64,000 nucleotides of DNA from Thermoplasmata archaeon (GTDB taxonomy: Archaea; Thermoplasmatota; Thermoplasmata; Lutacidiplasmatales; UBA184), in assembly GCA_021828195.1 (NCBI GenBank), contig JAKASQ010000002.1, positions 276,245 through 340,244 on the forward strand, in the 5' to 3' direction. The notes beneath the pieces were generated by a model. The model ran no database searches and was not told the origin of the DNA. It worked only from the letters and a program-made list of their open reading frames with translations. Positions 40,098-64,000 of the stretch are shown here, one piece after another. Numbering within the stretch: position 1 is the first letter of the stretch; every line of letters starts with the position of its first letter. The position numbers and the translations under genes were made by a program.

Positions 40098-40736
40098 GTG
40101 TCCCGGTCGGCGATGCGACGCTTCCTCCTCCTCACCCACCGCGTTCCCGTGCACGGGGAGTTCACGCTCAACGACCTCGCCGGAGGGGGAGGTCGAATCG
40201 ACGAGATCGCTCGCGTGGCATCTACCGCATTCACCCTATCGAACGACCTGCGTCGGGACACGGAGCTGACGATCGTGTTCCCGGCGGCCTCCCCTGCCGA
40301 AGCGCGACGCATCCGCCTCGTGGGCTCGCGCCTGCGCCATCTCAATCCGGACGAGCGATCCACCGCCGCTCTGCTCAAGAACGCGCTCGTGCGATCGATG
40401 GCGTTCCCTTCGGACTTCGAGTCCTCCCCGGGACTGATCGTGGCGGCGGCGGATCCGGTCGAAGAGCTCCGACGCTTCCTCCAGCTCCCGAACGTGGTCT
40501 GGCTCATCGAAGGAGGGGGACCGCTGCGGGAGTGGAAGGGGAACCCCGCGGAGTTCTCGGCGGTGCTCTGCGACCCCTACGACCCGACGGACGGAGAGCG
40601 GGAGGTGCTCGCCGCGAGCGGCGCGCTTCCGGTTTCCGTCGGACCGCGCTCGCTCCGGTCCTCCCAGGTGATGGACATTGTCCACAACGAGCTCGATTTG
40701 AGGGAAGCGACCGGGGAGCCCCCGACCGAGGGCTAG
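40098..40736 (+). CDS. SPOUT-class methyltransferase, TrmY-like (COG1901/DUF358; tRNA pseudouridine-54 N1-methyltransferase family)
   Basis: GRIDEIARVASTAF, LRHLNPDERS and overall ~210 aa length resemble TrmY; assignment from memory of family motifs. Confidence 0.5.
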   Translation: MSRSAMRRFLLLTHRVPVHGEFTLNDLAGGGGRIDEIARVASTAFTLSNDLRRDTELTIVFPAASPAEARRIRLVGSRLRHLNPDERSTAALLKNALVRSMAFPSDFESSPGLIVAAADPVEELRRFLQLPNVVWLIEGGGPLREWKGNPAEFSAVLCDPYDPTDGEREVLAASGALPVSVGPRSLRSSQVMDIVHNELDLREATGEPPTEG

Positions 40737-41755
40737 TGCGCGGGAAGCGCCTTCGAGGCCGAGGGCGGTCGGCCGAGGGCCTCCCGGATGGATTGCGGTT
40801 TGAGGCCCCCGATCACCGCGGTCAGCCGAACCACTTCGCGAGGCTCTTCGTGCGTCCGGGTGCCCACGACGATGTCCCTCGGATTGCCGAGCCTCCGTCG
40901 GAAGCTCTCCAGGAGCCGCTCGAACGTGTCGAGGGTCATGTTGGAACCCCCGTCCATGTGGATCAACGCCGAGGGCCGATCCGTCAGCTCGTAATCGAGC
41001 AGAGTCTCGCGCATCGCTTGCTCGACCAGACGCTCCGGCTCGGAGTGGTGGCGTTCTCCCCAGACGAGCGTGGAGAGTCCGGCGGCTCCGAGGTGGGTCT
41101 TGATGCTGGCGACGTCGACGTTCATCTGGGAAGGGTACTCGACCATGTCCACCAGGCACGAGACGAGGCCGTGGACGTAGGCGTTGCGTAGGTGGAGCAC
41201 GCGCGGGAACGGCAAGCCGCGGAATCTCAGCAGTTTCTCGTTGGAGAGCGCGAGGAGGAAGCCGCCCATCGCCTCGAGCTCCTCGAGGCTCTCCTCCACG
41301 TTCTCCCGCCGGCCGGGGCTCGCGAGCTCGTGGTGGAAGGGGAGGAAGGCGACCGGGACGGGCATCGCACCGGTCTTGCGTAGTTCCTGGGCGAGGTAGG
41401 GCAACAGCGCGCTGCCGGTGCCGCCACCGAGCCCGGCAAGGAGAAACACGATCTCGAACTCGGAGACACGCCGAAGGATCTCAGGGGCATTGTCCTCCAC
41501 CGCACGCCTCGCGGCGAGCCGGTTGCCTCCTGAGCCACGGCCCTTGAGCTCGCGCGCCCCGATCAGGATCCGTTGCGGGATGTCCATCCCATCGAGGTGG
41601 CGGGCGTCGGTGTTGATCGCGAACGATCGGACCCCGGGCAGCCCCAAGCCGAGGAGATCGCGGACGGCGTCGCCGCCGGCACCTCCGAGCCCGACGATCG
41701 CGAACGAGGGATCGGCGTGGAGGGCCGCCCAGGCGTCCGGGGAGCTATCGAGCAT
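40733..41755 (-). CDS. FtsZ/tubulin-superfamily GTPase (divergent, CetZ-like)
   Basis: G-box-like IVGLGGAGGDAV and tubulin signature AGLGGGTGSA; the rest is divergent from canonical FtsZ. Confidence 0.7.
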   Translation of the reverse strand: MLDSSPDAWAALHADPSFAIVGLGGAGGDAVRDLLGLGLPGVRSFAINTDARHLDGMDIPQRILIGARELKGRGSGGNRLAARRAVEDNAPEILRRVSEFEIVFLLAGLGGGTGSALLPYLAQELRKTGAMPVPVAFLPFHHELASPGRRENVEESLEELEAMGGFLLALSNEKLLRFRGLPFPRVLHLRNAYVHGLVSCLVDMVEYPSQMNVDVASIKTHLGAAGLSTLVWGERHHSEPERLVEQAMRETLLDYELTDRPSALIHMDGGSNMTLDTFERLLESFRRRLGNPRDIVVGTRTHEEPREVVRLTAVIGGLKPQSIREALGRPPSASKALPAH

Positions 41756-41767
41756 GGGCCTTCGCGC

Positions 41768-42130
41768 CTAGGTCGACGAACTTCCGCCGGCCGTCGCGCG
41801 CGCTTCGGAGCGGGGGACGCGCGCAGGTACGGGCGGGTGCTCGAGCCGCTGGCGGATGTATTCGCGGACCGCGGAGCGCACCGCGTCGTCGACCGACACC
41901 GAGTTCCCTTCGCGCACGAACTCTTCGAGCTCGCGGTTGTCTTGGCGAGATAGTTCAACGACCACCTTGCGCACGTTCGGCGGCGGGAGATGCATCTCTA
42001 CGTACCGCTCGAGACCTTCACGGATCGTGTCGGAGATTGTGGCCGTGCCGGTCGCCTTCTGGACCTGCTTGAGCTTCTCCACGAGACTCTGAGGGATGCG
42101 TACGGTCACCCGTTCTGACGTATCGGTCAT
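41768..42130 (-). CDS. Ribbon-helix-helix (CopG/Arc-like) DNA-binding protein
   Basis: VTVRIPQSLVEKLKQV N-terminal RHH strand-helix; 12 nt upstream of the FtsZ-like gene on the same strand. Confidence 0.5.
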   Translation of the reverse strand: MTDTSERVTVRIPQSLVEKLKQVQKATGTATISDTIREGLERYVEMHLPPPNVRKVVVELSRQDNRELEEFVREGNSVSVDDAVRSAVREYIRQRLEHPPVPARVPRSEARATAGGSSST

Positions 42131-42321
42131 GTTCGTCAGACACCATTGCTCCCTTTGTCAGACGAATGGCATATCCTTCCCGAGGCTTAAACGTTTGTTT
42201 GGACGCCGACCGCTCGACGGCTTCCCCCGAGGAGCGTGGGCGAGCGAGCCACGCTCGGGCCGAGGAGGAACGCGCTCTCGATTCGGTGGAAGGCCGGGCT
42301 CTTGCCCGAACGAACCCGATC

Positions 42322-58412: not shown

Positions 58413-58974
58413 CCGAGAGCGCCGAACTCCTCCTATGTCCCGTTCGATGACTCTTCGCGGCCTCTCGCGAGTCGCCTTCGAAGCGCGACAAATCGGAGCT
58501 TAGGCCCAGTCACTCCGACAGTTCGTCCAGTCGGTACGCGCAGTAGCACGCACCAATCCCGCCTTCATACAACACGAAGACGCCTGTCCCCAAGAGGGAG
58601 CCATCCATCCGTTGCGACCAGCGCTGCGAGTACTCTTCCAAAGGTGAGGATCACGATCCCCGCGTGCTATCCAACCTCGACCCATTTCGCACGTCGCTCG
58701 GAAGGCGTCGAAGTCTCTCATTGACCCGTGGACATGATTGCTCCAGGGGCTGGAGGGCCCCCACTCGACAGTCAATCTGCCGTCGAGGCAAACGGAGCGC
58801 CCGGATGGCCCAGCACGACGGCCGGACGCCGTTCGGTGCCCGGTCCCCCAAGACTCTTCGGTTCCCAGGCGCCTGGGGCACCCCGTTCGTTAGCCCGGCA
58901 GCCACGCCGGCGGATGACCGCTCTAGCCGATTCATGACCCGACGTGTAACACCTTCGGAGCGGCTATAGAAATG

Positions 58975-59004
58975 ACCCGCTAGCGCAACAGTACCTTTCG
59001 GGCC
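58975..59004. repeat. 30-bp direct repeat (copy 1 of 2; copy 2 at 61066..61095) = IS right-end fragment plus 9-bp target sequence
   Basis: ACCCGCTAGCGCAACAGTACCTTTCGGGCC identical at both sites. Confidence 0.8.
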
Positions 59005-59036
59005 GGTACTGTTGTATGTCGGGGGATGAAATGTCC

Positions 59037-59306
59037 CTAGTCACCTCCGTTGCTTTTCGGGTGATGGGGGGAGGGCTTGCCCTCGGCAGCCCTTACCTCG
59101 ATTCTGGACCCGTGAACGATGTAGGTAATTCTCTCGGGGCGGGAGAGGCGATCCACGATGGGCTTGGGGATCGTGGTGAGGGTGCCTCGCGTCTCATGGT
59201 AGCTGACGCTCACAGTGAACTCCTTGGCGCCGGCCTTCCACTTCGGCATCGGAACCTCCCAAGTTATCCACATATATACGGGCATCGGGCAGTCGTCGAT
59301 ATCCAC
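59037..59306 (-). CDS. Small AbrB/SpoVT-like (swapped-hairpin) protein, hypothetical, inside IS left arm
   Basis: 89-aa ORF with TIPKPIVDRL-type motif; antisense to the IS upstream region. Confidence 0.3.
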   Translation of the reverse strand: MDIDDCPMPVYMWITWEVPMPKWKAGAKEFTVSVSYHETRGTLTTIPKPIVDRLSRPERITYIVHGSRIEVRAAEGKPSPHHPKSNGGD

Positions 59307-59339
59307 GTGGACGCACTATCGTTATATATCCACTTGGAT

Positions 59340-60503
59340 ATGCCCTATGCGATGACGGCGATGTGGCAGGACGCGAGGACCCCGGCGCTAGCGATTGTGG
59401 CACGCGGGGACCAAATCGAGACGGTGAACCCGACTGAGTATGTCGTTCGTTCCCAAAGCAAGTTGGACGCAAAGTACCATGTGACGGTAAGCAGGGATCG
59501 GTGGGATTGCGACTGCCCATTCTACGCCGAGACGAAGGTGGCGTGTATTCACATCTACGCAGTCCGGTTCCGAGCTGGATTCCGGCAGGCGAGCGGCAAG
59601 GAGAGTGTCGAACCATGCTCACGGTGCGGTTCGGGTCTTGTCGTTCGGGACGGGAAGCGACACAACCGGAGCGGTATGATCGCACGGTACGTCTGCCGTG
59701 CATGTGGCTATCGGTTCACCGGGCATGATGGTTTCCAGCGCCGCCGATCCGACCCGGAGAAGATCGCGCTCGCGCTCGACCTCTATTTCCGAGGCATGAG
59801 CGTACGCAAAGTCTCGGAGCATTTCGTTCAGGTTCACGGCCTCAAGATCGACCACACCACCGTCTATCGTTGGGTGGTGAGTTACTCCAAGCTGGCCTCC
59901 GAGTGGATGGACCGGCAGGGCGCGAGGACAGGGGAGCGGTGGCATGTGGATGAAACGGTCGTGTCGGTGAACGGCGACCCGAAGTACGTCTGGAATGTCA
60001 TGGACGGCGAGACTCGTTTCCTGATGGCGACCCACGTTAGCGCCGGGCGGGGGATGGACGACACCCGGGCTCCTCTCCGAAAGGCAAAGGCCGTCACCCC
60101 GGACCGGCCGATGGAGGTATTCACGGACGGGATGAACGCCTACCCTCGCGCGGTTCGGAAGGAACTCTCGTTCCGAGTTGGGGACCGCGTTATCAGCCCG
60201 CACCACCGAGTGCCGAGCATCCGCGCGCCCGAGTCGAACAACCGGATCGAACGGCTCCACGGTTCGGAGAAGGAGAGAATCAAGGTGATGCGCGGGTTCG
60301 ACACGGACAAGGGAACGGCGGCCCTGATGGAAGGGTTCCGGACGCACTACAACCTGATTCGGACCCATCAGGCACTTGGGACCACGCCGGCGGTCGCGGC
60401 GGGGTTCCCGGAGCTTCCCGGGTTCAAGTGGCACGAACTCCTCAAGCGGGCCGCGCCACAGCCGAAGCCAGGTTACTCCGAGATCGAGATCATTCCGAAC
60501 TAG
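59340..60503 (+). CDS. IS6-family DDE transposase with N-terminal zinc-finger region
   Basis: DDE triad context WHVDETVV, VFTDGMNAY, NNRIERLHGSEKERIK; N-terminal SWIM-like CDCPFYAETKVACIH and ribbon CSRCG...CRACG; start taken at MPYAMTAMW (listed ORF begins at 59016). Confidence 0.75.
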   Translation: MPYAMTAMWQDARTPALAIVARGDQIETVNPTEYVVRSQSKLDAKYHVTVSRDRWDCDCPFYAETKVACIHIYAVRFRAGFRQASGKESVEPCSRCGSGLVVRDGKRHNRSGMIARYVCRACGYRFTGHDGFQRRRSDPEKIALALDLYFRGMSVRKVSEHFVQVHGLKIDHTTVYRWVVSYSKLASEWMDRQGARTGERWHVDETVVSVNGDPKYVWNVMDGETRFLMATHVSAGRGMDDTRAPLRKAKAVTPDRPMEVFTDGMNAYPRAVRKELSFRVGDRVISPHHRVPSIRAPESNNRIERLHGSEKERIKVMRGFDTDKGTAALMEGFRTHYNLIRTHQALGTTPAVAAGFPELPGFKWHELLKRAAPQPKPGYSEIEIIPN

Positions 60504-60513
60504 GGGTGGAGAT

Positions 60514-60720
60514 ATGGAGAGTCACACCAAAGGGGGACTCGAAGATCATCGGCGGTCAAGCCGGGTCCTATTGCTCTCTTCTCTAATGATCTTGTTCGCG
60601 GCGGTGGTCGTTACACTGAGCAGGGCGCCCGAGGCCGCCGTGGTGGTCACGTGGGCGTTCGCGGGTTACTTCATCGGGGGGTTCACCCTCGCACAGTCGG
60701 GGCATCGTGACGCGAAATGA
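60514..60720 (+). CDS. Small 2-TM membrane protein, hypothetical (IS passenger)
   Basis: 68-aa ORF MESHTKGG...LLLSSLMILFAAVVVTL...VTWAFAGYFIGGFTLA. Confidence 0.3.
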   Translation: MESHTKGGLEDHRRSSRVLLLSSLMILFAAVVVTLSRAPEAAVVVTWAFAGYFIGGFTLAQSGHRDAK

Positions 60721-60728
60721 GTGGAGTT

Positions 60729-60989
60729 CTAATGGACGAGCGGAGCGATTACGGCCCAAAGAATTCCGGCGACGATGAGGCCAAGGCCCCCCGAAACGGT
60801 GAAATGCCAAAACCGAATCTCTGCCGGTGTAAAAATCAGGACCGCGAAGCCGAAAAAGATGAACATGCCGGGGATCGAACCGAGCACGAGCGCGATGATC
60901 CCACCTATGAACACGATAAACCCGAACAGAATCGGGGCCTTCTTCGGGTTGAAGAGACTTTCGAGTATGAATCCCACGGTTACATTCAC
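60729..60989 (-). CDS. Small 3-TM membrane protein, hypothetical (IS passenger)
   Basis: 86-aa hydrophobic ORF with lower GC than flanking chromosome. Confidence 0.35.
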   Translation of the reverse strand: MNVTVGFILESLFNPKKAPILFGFIVFIGGIIALVLGSIPGMFIFFGFAVLIFTPAEIRFWHFTVSGGLGLIVAGILWAVIAPLVH

Positions 60990-61203
60990 CCCTTGGCCGA
61001 AGTTACTGATGCTACGAACGCACCGTCACCCGACTTCCAACGTCCAGAATCCACGATGGCTTATCACCCGCTAGCGCAACAGTACCTTTCGGGCCCAACG
61101 ATTAAATATGGCTGACAGGGCTCCCTAACGGCTGCTGACAACTGTCTGACAAACGGCCAGGCAACAGCAACGGTGGAAGGTTCCGGGAGCCGGTGAACAG
61201 TCG

Positions 61204-64000
61204 ATGCATCTCAAGAAGTTGAAACTGAGGAACTTCAAGTCATTCGCCGGCGCGGTAGAGATCCCATTCGAGCCGGGTTACACGGGCGTTGCGGGTCCGA
61301 ACGGGATGGGCAAGTCCAACATCTCCGATGGGATTCTGTTCGTTCTCGGGCCGAAGAGCTCGAAGGCCCTCCGTGCCGATCGATTGACGCACCTCTTCTT
61401 CAACGGCGGGGCCTCGAAGAAACCCGCCACGGAGTGCGAGGTCTCACTGGTCTTCGACAACGTCGATCGTCTGCTACCGGTGGAGTCGGACGAAGTGGAG
61501 GTCACGCGATACGTCAAGCTCGCTCCGAGCGATCCCGACGGATACTATTCCTACTTCTACGTCAACGGCAAGCGGACCACTCAGACCGACATCGACAGCA
61601 TCCTCTCCCACGCGGGGCTCTCCGGCGACGGGTACAACCTCGTCCAGCAGGGGGACGTGAACAACATCGTCACGATGGGGCCGGTGCCGCGCCGAGGTCT
61701 GCTCGAGCGCCTCGCCGGGATCGCCCAGTTTGACGACGAGCTCGGACGGGCGGAGACCAAGCGAACGGACCTCGATGCCAATCTGGATCGGATCCGAACA
61801 CTTCTCGGCGAAATCAAGAGCCGGCTCGGCTCTCTCGAATCCCAGCGGCTAGAGGCCATCCAGTACCGGCAACTCGAGGAGGAGAAACACCGAACCGAGG
61901 CGCGTCTCGCGCGCGCGGGCCACATGATGGCCCAACAGGAGTTTGACACCTGTCAAGAGCAGGTGGAGACGCTCCAGCAAGAGATCCAGAAGCTCGACGC
62001 GGAACGATCCCGGCTCGTCCACGAACGGGACGAGCTTGTCGCCCAGATCGACACCGTGGATCGAGAGATCGCGAAGGCGGGCGGAGAGGCGGCCGAGAAG
62101 TTCCGGACCGAACTGGGCGAGAAGCGGCTCGCGCTCGCGACCCTCCAGATGAACCTCGACCACCAGAAAGAAGCCCTCCAAACCCTGGAGAGCCGAGTCC
62201 AGGAGCTCAACGGACTATCGAGCTCGGACGAGAAGGAGAGCACTCGACTCCGCGCCGAGGAGACCCGGCTCGCCCAGCAGCTTGCCGAAGTCTCCAAGCG
62301 GAGTGACGAGATCGGTGCGCACCTCGCCGAAGCGACGGGCGGATCCGAACATTCGCAGGGAAAGCTCGCCGGCGCGAAGAAGCAGGTCCTCGAGCTCCAG
62401 CGCCGCCAGACCGAACGCGAAAAGGCATGGCAGGCGGGGGTCCAGCAACGTGAATCGCTCAAGGCCCAGGTCGAGAGCGCCGAGCGCGCCCGCGCCCAGG
62501 CCGAAGATAGCCGCCGGGAGCGGGAGGTCGAGGTCCGGGACCTCGAGCTCCGGATCAAGGAAGCGAACCCGGACGGCACCAACAAGGGCGGAGCTACCGG
62601 GGATCTCCAGAAGGAGCTCTTCCAGCTCAAGAACAGGGAAAAGAGCCTCACCGAGGAGGCCGAACGTATCGGGCGGGAAGTCACCGAACTGAACCGGCGC
62701 TACATGGCCCTCGAGGCCCGCCTCAAGGCGCGCAGCGAATCCGGAAGCCGCGGCGGCGCGCTCGCCGCGGTGGACTTCCTGCTATCGCAGCGGAATCTCG
62801 GCAAGGTCAAGGGGATTCGAGGAACGATCTCCGAGCTCATCCAGTTCGACAACAAGCACCGCCTTGGGCTCGAGATCGCCGGAGGTTCTCGGTTCCACGC
62901 CCTCGTGGTCGAGACCGACGCGGTCGCGGAGGAGTGCATCCGCACCCTGCGCGCGGAGAAGCGAGGACGGGCTACCTTCCTCCCCCTCAACAAGATGCTT
63001 CCCGCCCGACCGAAGGGCAAGAGCCTGATCGCCGCCCAATCGTCGGGGGCGGTGGGATTCGCCATCGATCTAGTCAAGTTCGACGAGTCGCTGCGGCCGG
63101 CGATCTCCTACGTGTTCGGCGAGACGGTCGTGATGGACGATCTCGCCCACGCACGCGCGCAGATGGGAGGCGTCCGCCTCGTCACCCTGACGGGCGATCT
63201 GATCGAGGCGACGGGGGCGATCTCCGGTGGGTACCTCGACGCGGCCGGCAAGAGCGTGGACAGCGCCTCCGAGCTCAAGCAGATCGGCGAGGAGCTCCGA
63301 GAGAAGAGCGGAGCCGACGCCGCCGCGCGCACCGAGCTCGGCAAGGTGTCGACCCGGATCCGCGAGGTGAGCGAGGAACTCGCGAAGCGTTCGATCCGTG
63401 CCGACGCGCATCAGTCTACTCGCCAGATCCTCGATAAGGAGCTCTCCGCGGCTCGCCAACGCCTCCAAGAGATGGTCGGGCAGATCCGCGCCTCTCAGAA
63501 GGAGCAGGAACACGCGAGCGAGGAGCTCTCCACCCTCGAGGCGAGCGTAGCGAAGCTCGCGGAGGAGATCGCCGGCCTCAAAGCCGAGATCGCGAAGTCC
63601 CAGGAGCAGTATCTCGGACAGCTTCCCGGCGCCCTCTCCCTGCGGGTCCGACAATGGCAGCAGGACGCTCAGGAGACGAGCGACGCCCGCGTGAAGCTGA
63701 ACGGAGAGCTTCAGTCGATCCGGACGAATCTCACGGCGCTCACCGAGCGCCTAGCGGCCCGGAGGAAGGAGGTCGCGACCGCGCAACAGGAGCTCGCGGC
63801 CAAGCGCAAGGAGATCGCCACGAGCGAGCACGCGCTCGTCCAGTCAAAGGCGGCGCTCGACGCGATGAAGGGCGTAGAAGAACAGCAAGGAGCGAACTTC
63901 CGCGTGCAGGCCGAGAAGAAGAAGAAGCTCGCGGACGCGAGGCTCACGGTGACCGAGTCGCTCGCGAAGGCCGAGGTGACGGTCACGAGCCGGCAGACGA
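61204..64000 (+). CDS. smc: Chromosome segregation protein SMC (partial, continues past window end)
   Basis: N-terminal Walker A GPNGMGKSN, long coiled coil, hinge (GVKGIRGTISELIQFD...GGSRFHALVVE); no stop before 64000. Confidence 0.9.
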   Translation, partial: MHLKKLKLRNFKSFAGAVEIPFEPGYTGVAGPNGMGKSNISDGILFVLGPKSSKALRADRLTHLFFNGGASKKPATECEVSLVFDNVDRLLPVESDEVEVTRYVKLAPSDPDGYYSYFYVNGKRTTQTDIDSILSHAGLSGDGYNLVQQGDVNNIVTMGPVPRRGLLERLAGIAQFDDELGRAETKRTDLDANLDRIRTLLGEIKSRLGSLESQRLEAIQYRQLEEEKHRTEARLARAGHMMAQQEFDTCQEQVETLQQEIQKLDAERSRLVHERDELVAQIDTVDREIAKAGGEAAEKFRTELGEKRLALATLQMNLDHQKEALQTLESRVQELNGLSSSDEKESTRLRAEETRLAQQLAEVSKRSDEIGAHLAEATGGSEHSQGKLAGAKKQVLELQRRQTEREKAWQAGVQQRESLKAQVESAERARAQAEDSRREREVEVRDLELRIKEANPDGTNKGGATGDLQKELFQLKNREKSLTEEAERIGREVTELNRRYMALEARLKARSESGSRGGALAAVDFLLSQRNLGKVKGIRGTISELIQFDNKHRLGLEIAGGSRFHALVVETDAVAEECIRTLRAEKRGRATFLPLNKMLPARPKGKSLIAAQSSGAVGFAIDLVKFDESLRPAISYVFGETVVMDDLAHARAQMGGVRLVTLTGDLIEATGAISGGYLDAAGKSVDSASELKQIGEELREKSGADAAARTELGKVSTRIREVSEELAKRSIRADAHQSTRQILDKELSAARQRLQEMVGQIRASQKEQEHASEELSTLEASVAKLAEEIAGLKAEIAKSQEQYLGQLPGALSLRVRQWQQDAQETSDARVKLNGELQSIRTNLTALTERLAARRKEVATAQQELAAKRKEIATSEHALVQSKAALDAMKGVEEQQGANFRVQAEKKKKLADARLTVTESLAKAEVTVTSRQT

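Follow-up and report, generated by a model that had tools for sequence, protein, structure and literature searches.

The stretch of DNA analysed here (the window), 64,000 nucleotides of contig JAKASQ010000002.1 from a Thermoplasmata archaeon, carries directly upstream of its smc gene an insertion sequence (IS) that is, as read from its sequence, real and intact, and that belongs to a clade of Thermoplasmata elements, not described before, with kinship to the IS6 family. For comparison, related loci were fetched from other genomes and are labelled L001, L005, L009 and so on. Taken as a whole, we consider it very probable that this is an IS6-related element that joins itself to target DNA with a 9-bp stagger, that it landed on the promoter side of smc, and that a solo end found beside it is what an earlier occupant left behind. 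The sequence features reported in a preliminary description, made from the letters of the window, were all found, with positions exact or off by no more than 3 nt.

Ends, genes and family relations of the element

The 10-mer GGTACTGTTG occurs in exactly three exact copies in the 64 kb, at 59005(+), 61086(-) and 58995(-), and yields five matches when one mismatch is allowed, compared with 0.5 expected. The first two copies are the IS26-like termini that the preliminary description had recognized, and they enclose 2,082 bp, in agreement with its 2.08 kb. Both ends begin with GGTACTG, having the GG start and the G at position 7, are identical at 10 of 10 positions, and continue into a conserved CGGG block; the left and right ends are offset by a 1-nt indel, and a simple inverted-repeat finder therefore missed the pair. 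GGTACTGTTG differs at one position from the end of IS26, which we take to be GGCACTGTTGCAAA. The 9-mer TTTCGGGCC flanks the element on both sides, as had been claimed in place of the 8 bp of IS6. A direct repeat was likewise recovered, although its length was revised from 30 bp to 33 nt by a repeat finder (58972-59004 and 61063-61095; the two copies differ at position 3 only), and its 21-nt core occurs twice where shuffled sequences give an expectation of 0. The GC content of the element (0.53-0.62) is below that of its surroundings (0.65-0.68). The same locus is found without any difference in GCA_027378275.1, and at 99.84% identity in GCA_027378235.1. A public unitig (L077) matches window positions 58975-61095 at 100% identity, running from one direct-repeat copy to the other; where smc starts, assemblies are interrupted both by the 33-nt repeat and by the element.

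Long direct repeats flanking a 2.1-kb segment of lower GC than its surroundings could also be the attL and attR sites of an integrative element moved by a site-specific recombinase. We give this reading almost no credence, as the repeat can be divided cleanly into a transposon end and a 9-bp duplication, an inverted copy stands at the opposite end of the element, and there is no integrase gene present and no tRNA or known RNA gene nearby. The preliminary description had allowed that the repeat might be a chromosomal sequence present without the IS, and the IS-free smc promoter of L069 lacks any such sequence. With tRNA and Rfam scans around the element returning no tRNA and no known RNA family, interpretations as an att site or a non-coding RNA were dropped.

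The transposase gene is assigned its ATG start because its homologues are ~385 aa long and the NCBI annotation gives 387 aa; a 495-aa open reading frame (ORF) from 59016 is a read-through artefact that runs antisense over a small gene in the left arm. An IS6-type DDE transposase with an N-terminal SWIM finger and a zinc ribbon had been proposed, and each part of this proposal holds. The protein matches PF13610 with 82.4 bits (cut-off 27, E 4e-23) and the NCBIfam model NF033587 (transpos_IS6) with 133.7 bits (cut-off 125), the latter over aa 132-341 and model positions 1-202 of 202; the SWIM finger PF04434 scores 23.2 bits (cut-off 19.6) at aa 45-74, with a CxCxnCxH motif in the sequence WDCDCPFYAETKVACIHIY, and is followed by a CxxC..CxxC zinc ribbon at aa ~93-128, where an IS1/IS1595-type zinc-binding module scores just below its cut-off. 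The homologues (n=437) are mostly ~385 aa long, and almost every one comes from a Thermoplasmata metagenome bin. The window protein shares 26-34% identity with the transposases of bacterial IS6 elements, the best bacterial E-values belonging to Clostridium copies, with the alignment starting at or shortly before the zinc ribbon. A structure search returned no solved structure close to the transposase.

The small gene divergent from the transposase gene had been described as an antisense AbrB-like ORF; the 70-aa ORF stands, whereas the AbrB-like label draws on weak fold matches. The protein has no Pfam or NCBIfam match and nothing significant in a sequence search of the PDB, and among its homologues 4 of 61 match PF04014 at E ~0.04 and a few reach MazE/PrlF models at E ~0.03. 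Its AlphaFold (AF2) model has a pLDDT of 84, and the best Foldseek matches of that model are MazE, VapB, the AbrB N-domain and C68, all of them weak (E >=0.8, TM ~0.5; probability 0.89 for the best match); an AbrB-like protein is thus plausible from the model, not proven. An exhaustive search found 93 representative homologues of 54-90 aa with the consensus MPKWKKDAxEFxVxV...RGxQxxIPKPxxExLGxPxxIxFxIxGxxVEV. The gene adjoins the transposase gene in every sampled element that has a transposase with 73% or more identity to that of the window (window, L001, L013, L014 and L072), and a tblastn search found it absent from all sampled elements of the 53-63% transposase group; among the closest relatives it accompanies the transposase as a conserved partner and is no casual passenger. 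L071 and L079 (transposase 65%) have a small antisense ORF called at the same position. Between the two divergent genes, the palindrome ATATCCACTTGGATAT overlaps the transposase ATG, and ATCCA-N-TGGAT palindromes recur in the same place in L013 and L072; these are candidate operators.

Transposition by way of cointegrates, with copies standing as direct repeats in pseudo-compound transposons, is a trait of the IS6 family, and the window has a single copy. Members of the IS6 family are ~0.8 kb long, with one ORF, an 8-bp duplication, 14-bp ends and a transposase of 213-254 aa; a single listed member has a passenger gene (ISDsp3), and zinc-finger extensions occur only in long clostridial clades (PMC7986276). 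Harmer and Hall doubt the IS6 membership of archaeal and long members (PMC6807381). With IS6/IS26 proper (IS26, IS257, IS6100) the window element shares the DDE core and helix-turn-helix (HTH) that match PF13610 and NF033587, as well as the GG start and the G at position 7. It differs in its 9-bp rather than 8-bp duplication, in its 2.1 kb with four ORFs (0.36-5.9 kb across the clade) rather than ~0.8 kb, in a transposase of 387 aa with two extra N-terminal zinc modules, and in having a second conserved gene and cargo, an archaeal host, and 26-34% identity to bacterial members. The long clostridial IS6 elements (clades h and i of Varani et al., VII/VIII of Harmer and Hall) resemble it in the zinc-finger extension before the core, the best bacterial E-values being those of Clostridium copies, and ISDsp3 resembles it in carrying a passenger gene; compared with both, the window element adds the SWIM finger, the archaeal host, the 9-bp duplication, a conserved partner gene and, in its clade, frequent large cargo. 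Archaeal elements labelled IS6 in ISfinder (halobacterial, Sulfolobus and Pyrococcus clades) share archaeal hosts, the DDE core superfamily and inverted repeats longer than 14 bp; unlike the window element, clades Ai and Aii are given as 700-750 (PMC7986276), and the zinc-finger extension is described only for long bacterial members. An ISC774-type model gives the window transposase 23.9 bits against a cut-off of 200. The window element is IS6-like by the protein tests and lacks both the 8-bp duplication and the single-gene ~0.8-kb layout, and hence is no plain IS6 member.

Features of the window element and its surroundings, and the elements of the clade with exact 9-bp duplications
Feature	Position or locus	Strand	Length	Remarks
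Segment of unassigned origin	58650-58971		322 bp	between conserved host flank and solo end
Solo right-end copy	58972-58995	+		23/24 nt identical to 61063-61086
Left 9-bp target duplication	58996-59004		9 bp	TTTCGGGCC; doubles as spacer between solo end and left inverted repeat
Insertion sequence	59005-61086		2,082 bp	ends and duplication read in the sequence
Left terminal inverted repeat	59005-59028	+		GGTACTGTTG then CGGGGGAT block; agrees with clade consensus GGTWCTGKN..CGGGTG
Small gene	59037-59249	-	70 aa	divergent from transposase gene; MazE/VapB/AbrB-like predicted fold
Divergent control region	59264-59341			TATA-like ATATATA/TTATATAT; palindromes ATCCACGTGGAC (59301-59312) and ATATCCACTTGGATAT (59326-59341)
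Transposase	59340-60503	+	387 aa	ATG start 59340
Transposase layout				SWIM finger aa ~45-74, zinc ribbon aa ~93-128, IS6-type HTH and DDE core aa 132-341
ORF	60514-60720	+	68 aa	hydrophobic, two likely membrane helices; 11 nt after transposase stop
ORF	60729-60989	-	86 aa	strongly hydrophobic
Right terminal inverted repeat	61063-61086	-		reverse complement GGTACTGTTGCGCTAGCGGGTGAT
Right 9-bp target duplication	61087-61095		9 bp	TTTCGGGCC
Spacer and TATA-like box	61096-61109	+		CAACGAT (7 nt) and TAAATAT (61103-61109); putative smc promoter
Three CTGACA repeats	61112-61156	+		ending in TGTCTGACAAACGG (61143-61156); smc 5' region
smc gene	61204-64000	+		ATG 61204; runs off the window
Element with exact 9-bp duplication	window		2,082 bp	
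Element with exact 9-bp duplication	L001		2,094 bp	
Element with exact 9-bp duplication	L015		2,552 bp	
Element with exact 9-bp duplication	L037 (2960-3321)		362 bp	miniature derivative
Element with exact 9-bp duplication	L009 (4276-6292)		2,017 bp	~380-aa cargo gene; transposase C-terminal remnant only
Element with exact 9-bp duplication	L057		3,645 bp	
Element with exact 9-bp duplication	L071		4,086 bp	
Element with exact 9-bp duplication	L072		2,297 bp	
Element with exact 9-bp duplication	L070-E1		2,520 bp	
Element with exact 9-bp duplication	L079 (501-6423)		5,923 bp	MmeI-like restriction-modification gene

Mobility of the clade and repeated occupation of the smc site

The ends of the related elements were located by a regular expression derived from real ends, and follow the pattern GGTWCTG(G/T), 5-10 variable nt, CGGGTG. 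Exact 9-bp repeats flank all ten elements with matching flanks, that of the window included, and 8-bp repeats flank none; a 9-bp duplication is a rule of the clade and no peculiarity of the window copy. An element of the L079 type with an identical transposase is present at three or more different flanks (L079, L080-L084), with the 9-bp duplication reconstructable at two of them, and because this one element is found at several flanks the clade is mobile.

At the smc site itself, the order to the right of the element is the 9-mer, CAACGAT, TAAATAT (61103), the three CTGACA repeats and the smc ATG, such that the element ends 9+7 nt upstream of the TAAATAT box, a fixed distance that the preliminary description had not remarked on. 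A TATA-like box lies at the same distance from smc in L001, L025 (reverse complement), L067, L068 and L069, and these loci differ in what stands before it. In L001 (transposase 76%, SMC 59% identical) a related element occupies the same place in the same orientation with a duplication of its own, CCTTGGACC; in L025 and L021 the element lies beside smc in the opposite orientation with the same spacing (end, CGAGCGGCG, GTTGGGT, TAAATAG); L067 (SMC 86%) has only a right-end remnant (...GAACAGTTCC, GATACGAGC, CAACGGT, TAAATAT); and L068 (SMC 82%) and L069 (SMC 79%), which supply the empty sites that the preliminary description had sought, have an smc promoter without any element end. Because both orientations, a lone remnant and empty sites all occur among these relatives, occupancy of the smc site is polymorphic, and at least two of the insertions there are independent. 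Many SMC homologues in the protein database are labelled 'partial', some of them on long contigs where smc is called in pieces (L067-L069); the pieces on long contigs suggest frameshift errors, and other partial SMCs lie on short contigs.

It could be supposed that the transposase gene is instead an old, fixed and domesticated resident, inherited vertically near cell-division genes, with the repeats as its relics. There is one copy per genome in most contexts, the transposases of the window and L001 are more alike (76%) than their SMC proteins (59%), three cell-division promoters share a motif (see below), and every context of the transposase clusters P0099 and P0093 lies directly upstream of ftsZ, where L040 has a right end only and L047 a degenerate one. 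We regard this as improbable nonetheless: the 9-bp duplications are perfect within genomes and differ between them (TTTCGGGCC, CCTTGGACC, GATACGAGC), which neutral drift after one ancient event would not yield, a single site is occupied in either orientation, the site is empty in closer relatives, and an identical element is present at several sites. Pure vertical inheritance, a possibility raised by the same-site element of L001, was rejected on account of the opposite orientation, the empty sites and the genome-specific duplications. The ftsZ-side loci, L040-L056 (e.g. L040 2501-4189), have an intact transposase gene; the right end in L040 overlaps the transposase stop codon and no left end was found there, and L047 has a degenerate right-end-like sequence only. 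This transposase looks like a stranded or possibly co-opted copy, kept across several assemblies.

A solo copy of the right end had been reported directly before the left duplication, and it is there, identical to the true right end at all but one of 24 nt, its similarity to the right arm stopping at the inner edge of the 24-nt repeat. The resulting arrangement, two element ends separated by 9 bp, occurs in six loci: the window (58995/59005), L013, L009, L038, L072 and L070. That the same junction exists in five related loci favors the first of two scenarios in the preliminary description, namely insertion next to a pre-existing end. The L013 junction has the same 9-mer as the window (TTTCGGGCC) with mixed end types, and that of L070 has two left ends facing each other. 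One element at the junction has a perfect 9-bp duplication in the window, L009, L070 and L072, and a 7/9 match in L013, the L038 contig ending early; its neighbour is a remnant or decayed, shorter, or without matching flanks. The most fitting reading of the solo right end is that an earlier insertion stood in this very place and left it behind.

Homology to L013 (92% at the nucleotide level) extends as far as 58649, the very point at which an element end stands in L013, and the segment that follows in the window, up to the solo end, is possibly the decayed interior of an older element. At 58645-58672 there is an inverted piece that looks like the inner portion of one of the ends, CGATCCCCGCG, with GGCGGGGATCG as its L013 counterpart. 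L013 and the window have the same flank and the same 9-mer, with the element inverted and an extra 899-bp element in L013; a reconstruction of the history linking the two did not succeed.

Elements such as IS30 and IS911 are known to place new copies directly beside a resident end. A right end joined to a left end across 9 bp might also be an active junction, formed in a tandem dimer or an excised circle during copy-out-paste-in transposition like that of IS30, IS911 and IS256, with the solo end as what such an intermediate left; the spacer does have the length of the duplication, and such junctions do recur. We consider this very unlikely, since the junctions come in any orientation, including left-to-left in L070 and mixed ends in L013, the partner is usually decayed or a different element, and the IS6-type core is tied to cointegrate formation in characterized members (PMC7986276). 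On the strength of the orientations, a circle or tandem-dimer junction was rejected.

Insertion upstream of TATA-like boxes

The 9+7-nt spacing seen in both orientations at smc is repeated at other genes. It is found before a ~104-aa tandem ribbon-helix-helix (cdrS-like) gene with an ftsZ-like gene (L005-type, L079), an operon site occupied by full elements or remnants in ~20 loci (in opposite orientation in L072), and before ftsZ (L040), a thermosome gene (L057) and a PAC2 gene (L085). Among 24 non-redundant ends, heptamers with at least six A/T peak 14-17 nt outside the ends (11, 10, 7 and 6 ends), with 0-2 at most other offsets. These regularities suggest that the clade preferentially inserts at a fixed distance upstream of TATA-like boxes, often before cell-division genes. 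Whether the target is chosen relative to the archaeal core promoter, with the 9 bp cut 5-7 bp upstream of the TATA box at the BRE/TATA edge, we judge to be an even question; the signal might lie in the AT-rich or bent DNA as such or in a TBP/TFB complex bound there. A literature search, confined to a searchable library, found no description of such targeting or of this clade. Mimicry of the element's end sequence by promoters was considered and dropped, as the only shared feature is AT-richness at positions 8-14.

The window has such an operon of its own on the minus strand, in which the cdrS-like tandem ribbon-helix-helix gene occupies 41768-42130 and the ftsZ-like gene after it 40733-41755, and no element is present at this operon (40733-42130). 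Upstream of the cdrS-like gene (region 40733-42200, minus strand) lie GTCTGACAAAG and TGTCTGACGAAC. The motif TGTC[TA]GAC[AG]AA occurs in the 64-kb window only before smc (61143-61156) and before the cdrS-like gene, and also before ftsZ in L040; the shared GTCTGAC motif looks like the operator of a cell-division regulon. Haloferax CdrS controls ftsZ1, ftsZ2, sepF and an smc homologue (PMC8406309), which makes a shared regulon plausible here, although it does not explain the 9+7 spacing. In the left arm of the 3.6-kb element of L057 (1063-1140), an internal end-like sequence precedes GTTTGTCGGAC, which on the other strand reads as the GTCCGACAAAC motif of the cell-division promoters, and the right ends of several elements carry TGTCGGACG ~30 nt from the tip.

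A possible, if doubtful, alternative is that insertion is essentially random and that the promoter-side position reflects either the survival of harmless insertions or a plain preference for AT-rich DNA in GC-rich genomes, and no recognition of promoters. The mobile 5.9-kb relative, L015 and L070 also occur at sites without a TATA-like box, and TATA boxes are among the few AT-rich islands in genomes of 60-67% GC. Selection alone would, however, accept any upstream distance, whereas the 9+7 spacing is exact, in either orientation, at no fewer than seven independent sites; the peak of A/T is sharp, and a preference for AT-rich DNA at one set offset already amounts to targeting.

In the account that we favor, the transposase would recognize ends of ~24 nt (GGTWCTGTT, 6-7 variable nt, CGGGTG); it joins them to target DNA cut with the 9-bp stagger that the duplications show, and the small divergent protein would probably bind the ATCCA-N-TGGAT palindromes and control expression of the transposase. 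The arms outside this two-gene core carry variable cargo, which in the window copy is the two small membrane ORFs. The element inserted into the 9 bp lying 7 nt upstream of the smc TATA-like box, a position preferred by the clade. An insertion leaves the box still 7 nt away from the duplicated 9-mer, and these 9 bp can therefore be hit anew, producing end-9 bp-end junctions. The present copy would have inserted beside the remnant of the earlier occupant at 58972-58995, and insertion next to that end explains the 33-nt direct repeat.

Several points weigh against this account. The two ends match perfectly over 10 nt only. The window element is single-copy and identical or 99.84% identical in three assemblies, its own transposition being deduced rather than observed. 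The earlier occupant cannot be reconstructed, as 58650-58971 has no homologue in any fetched locus, and for the neighbour elements in L072 and L070 the 9-mer is not repeated on the far side. The AbrB-type assignment of the small protein comes from weak matches (best Foldseek E 0.8) with the window protein itself outside Pfam, and the tie between palindromes and operators is one that we infer. The 24 ends of the A/T profile are a hand-curated list; no TATA-like box is present on either side in L015, L070 and site B of the L079 type, and at the other extra L079-type sites the left flank, the only one known, has none either.

Cargo and implications

The preliminary description had noted two small membrane proteins in the right arm, and two hydrophobic, coding-like ORFs are indeed present, without homologues and in an arm that varies among relatives. 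The 68-aa ORF has a coding-like GC at the three codon positions (0.61/0.48/0.72), is called by both NCBI and ENA gene callers, and is absent from the relatives compared. The 86-aa ORF was the sole match in its own homology search, and a homology search with the right-arm interior gave no match. NCBI annotates on the opposite strand a 127-aa ORF, 60732-61115 (+) (L075 3719-4102), which extends into host DNA by way of the right inverted repeat and the duplicated 9-mer; this is probably spurious, because the GC at codon positions favors the 86-aa ORF (0.55/0.37/0.68 compared with 0.65/0.41/0.53).

Elsewhere in the clade the cargo is larger. The L079 element has a 1,009-aa MmeI-like restriction-modification gene and two further ORFs, and restriction or methylase genes adjoin the transposase in L040, L047 and L085 and the smc-site remnant in L067. 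A non-autonomous 899-bp element with the same ends in L013 (2550-3448) encodes a 227-aa SAM-methyltransferase-like ORF, and the L009 and L037 elements are likewise non-autonomous relatives bounded by clade ends.

The window element thus represents a well-populated archaeal clade, with hundreds of transposases, that keeps the IS6 catalytic core and IS26-like tips, breaks two hallmarks of the family, routinely carries cargo that includes restriction-modification genes, and bears on whether IS6 should include the archaeal and 'long' members at all. The yeast elements Ty3 and Tf1 integrate at a fixed distance from a promoter element; the likeness to these, as to IS30 and IS911, is one of behavior only, the enzymes being unrelated and the window case known from sequence comparison alone. 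If the 9+7 distance reflects a choice of target, it would offer a directly testable case of promoter-directed integration in archaea, and the element would be the first promoter-directed transposon described there, functionally parallel to Ty3 and Tf1. Repeated hits on the same 9 bp would then stack elements before genes such as smc, ftsZ and the cdrS-like operon, and such a choice of target would allow mobile DNA in a natural way to reside before essential cell-division genes, either without harm or with an effect on their regulation.

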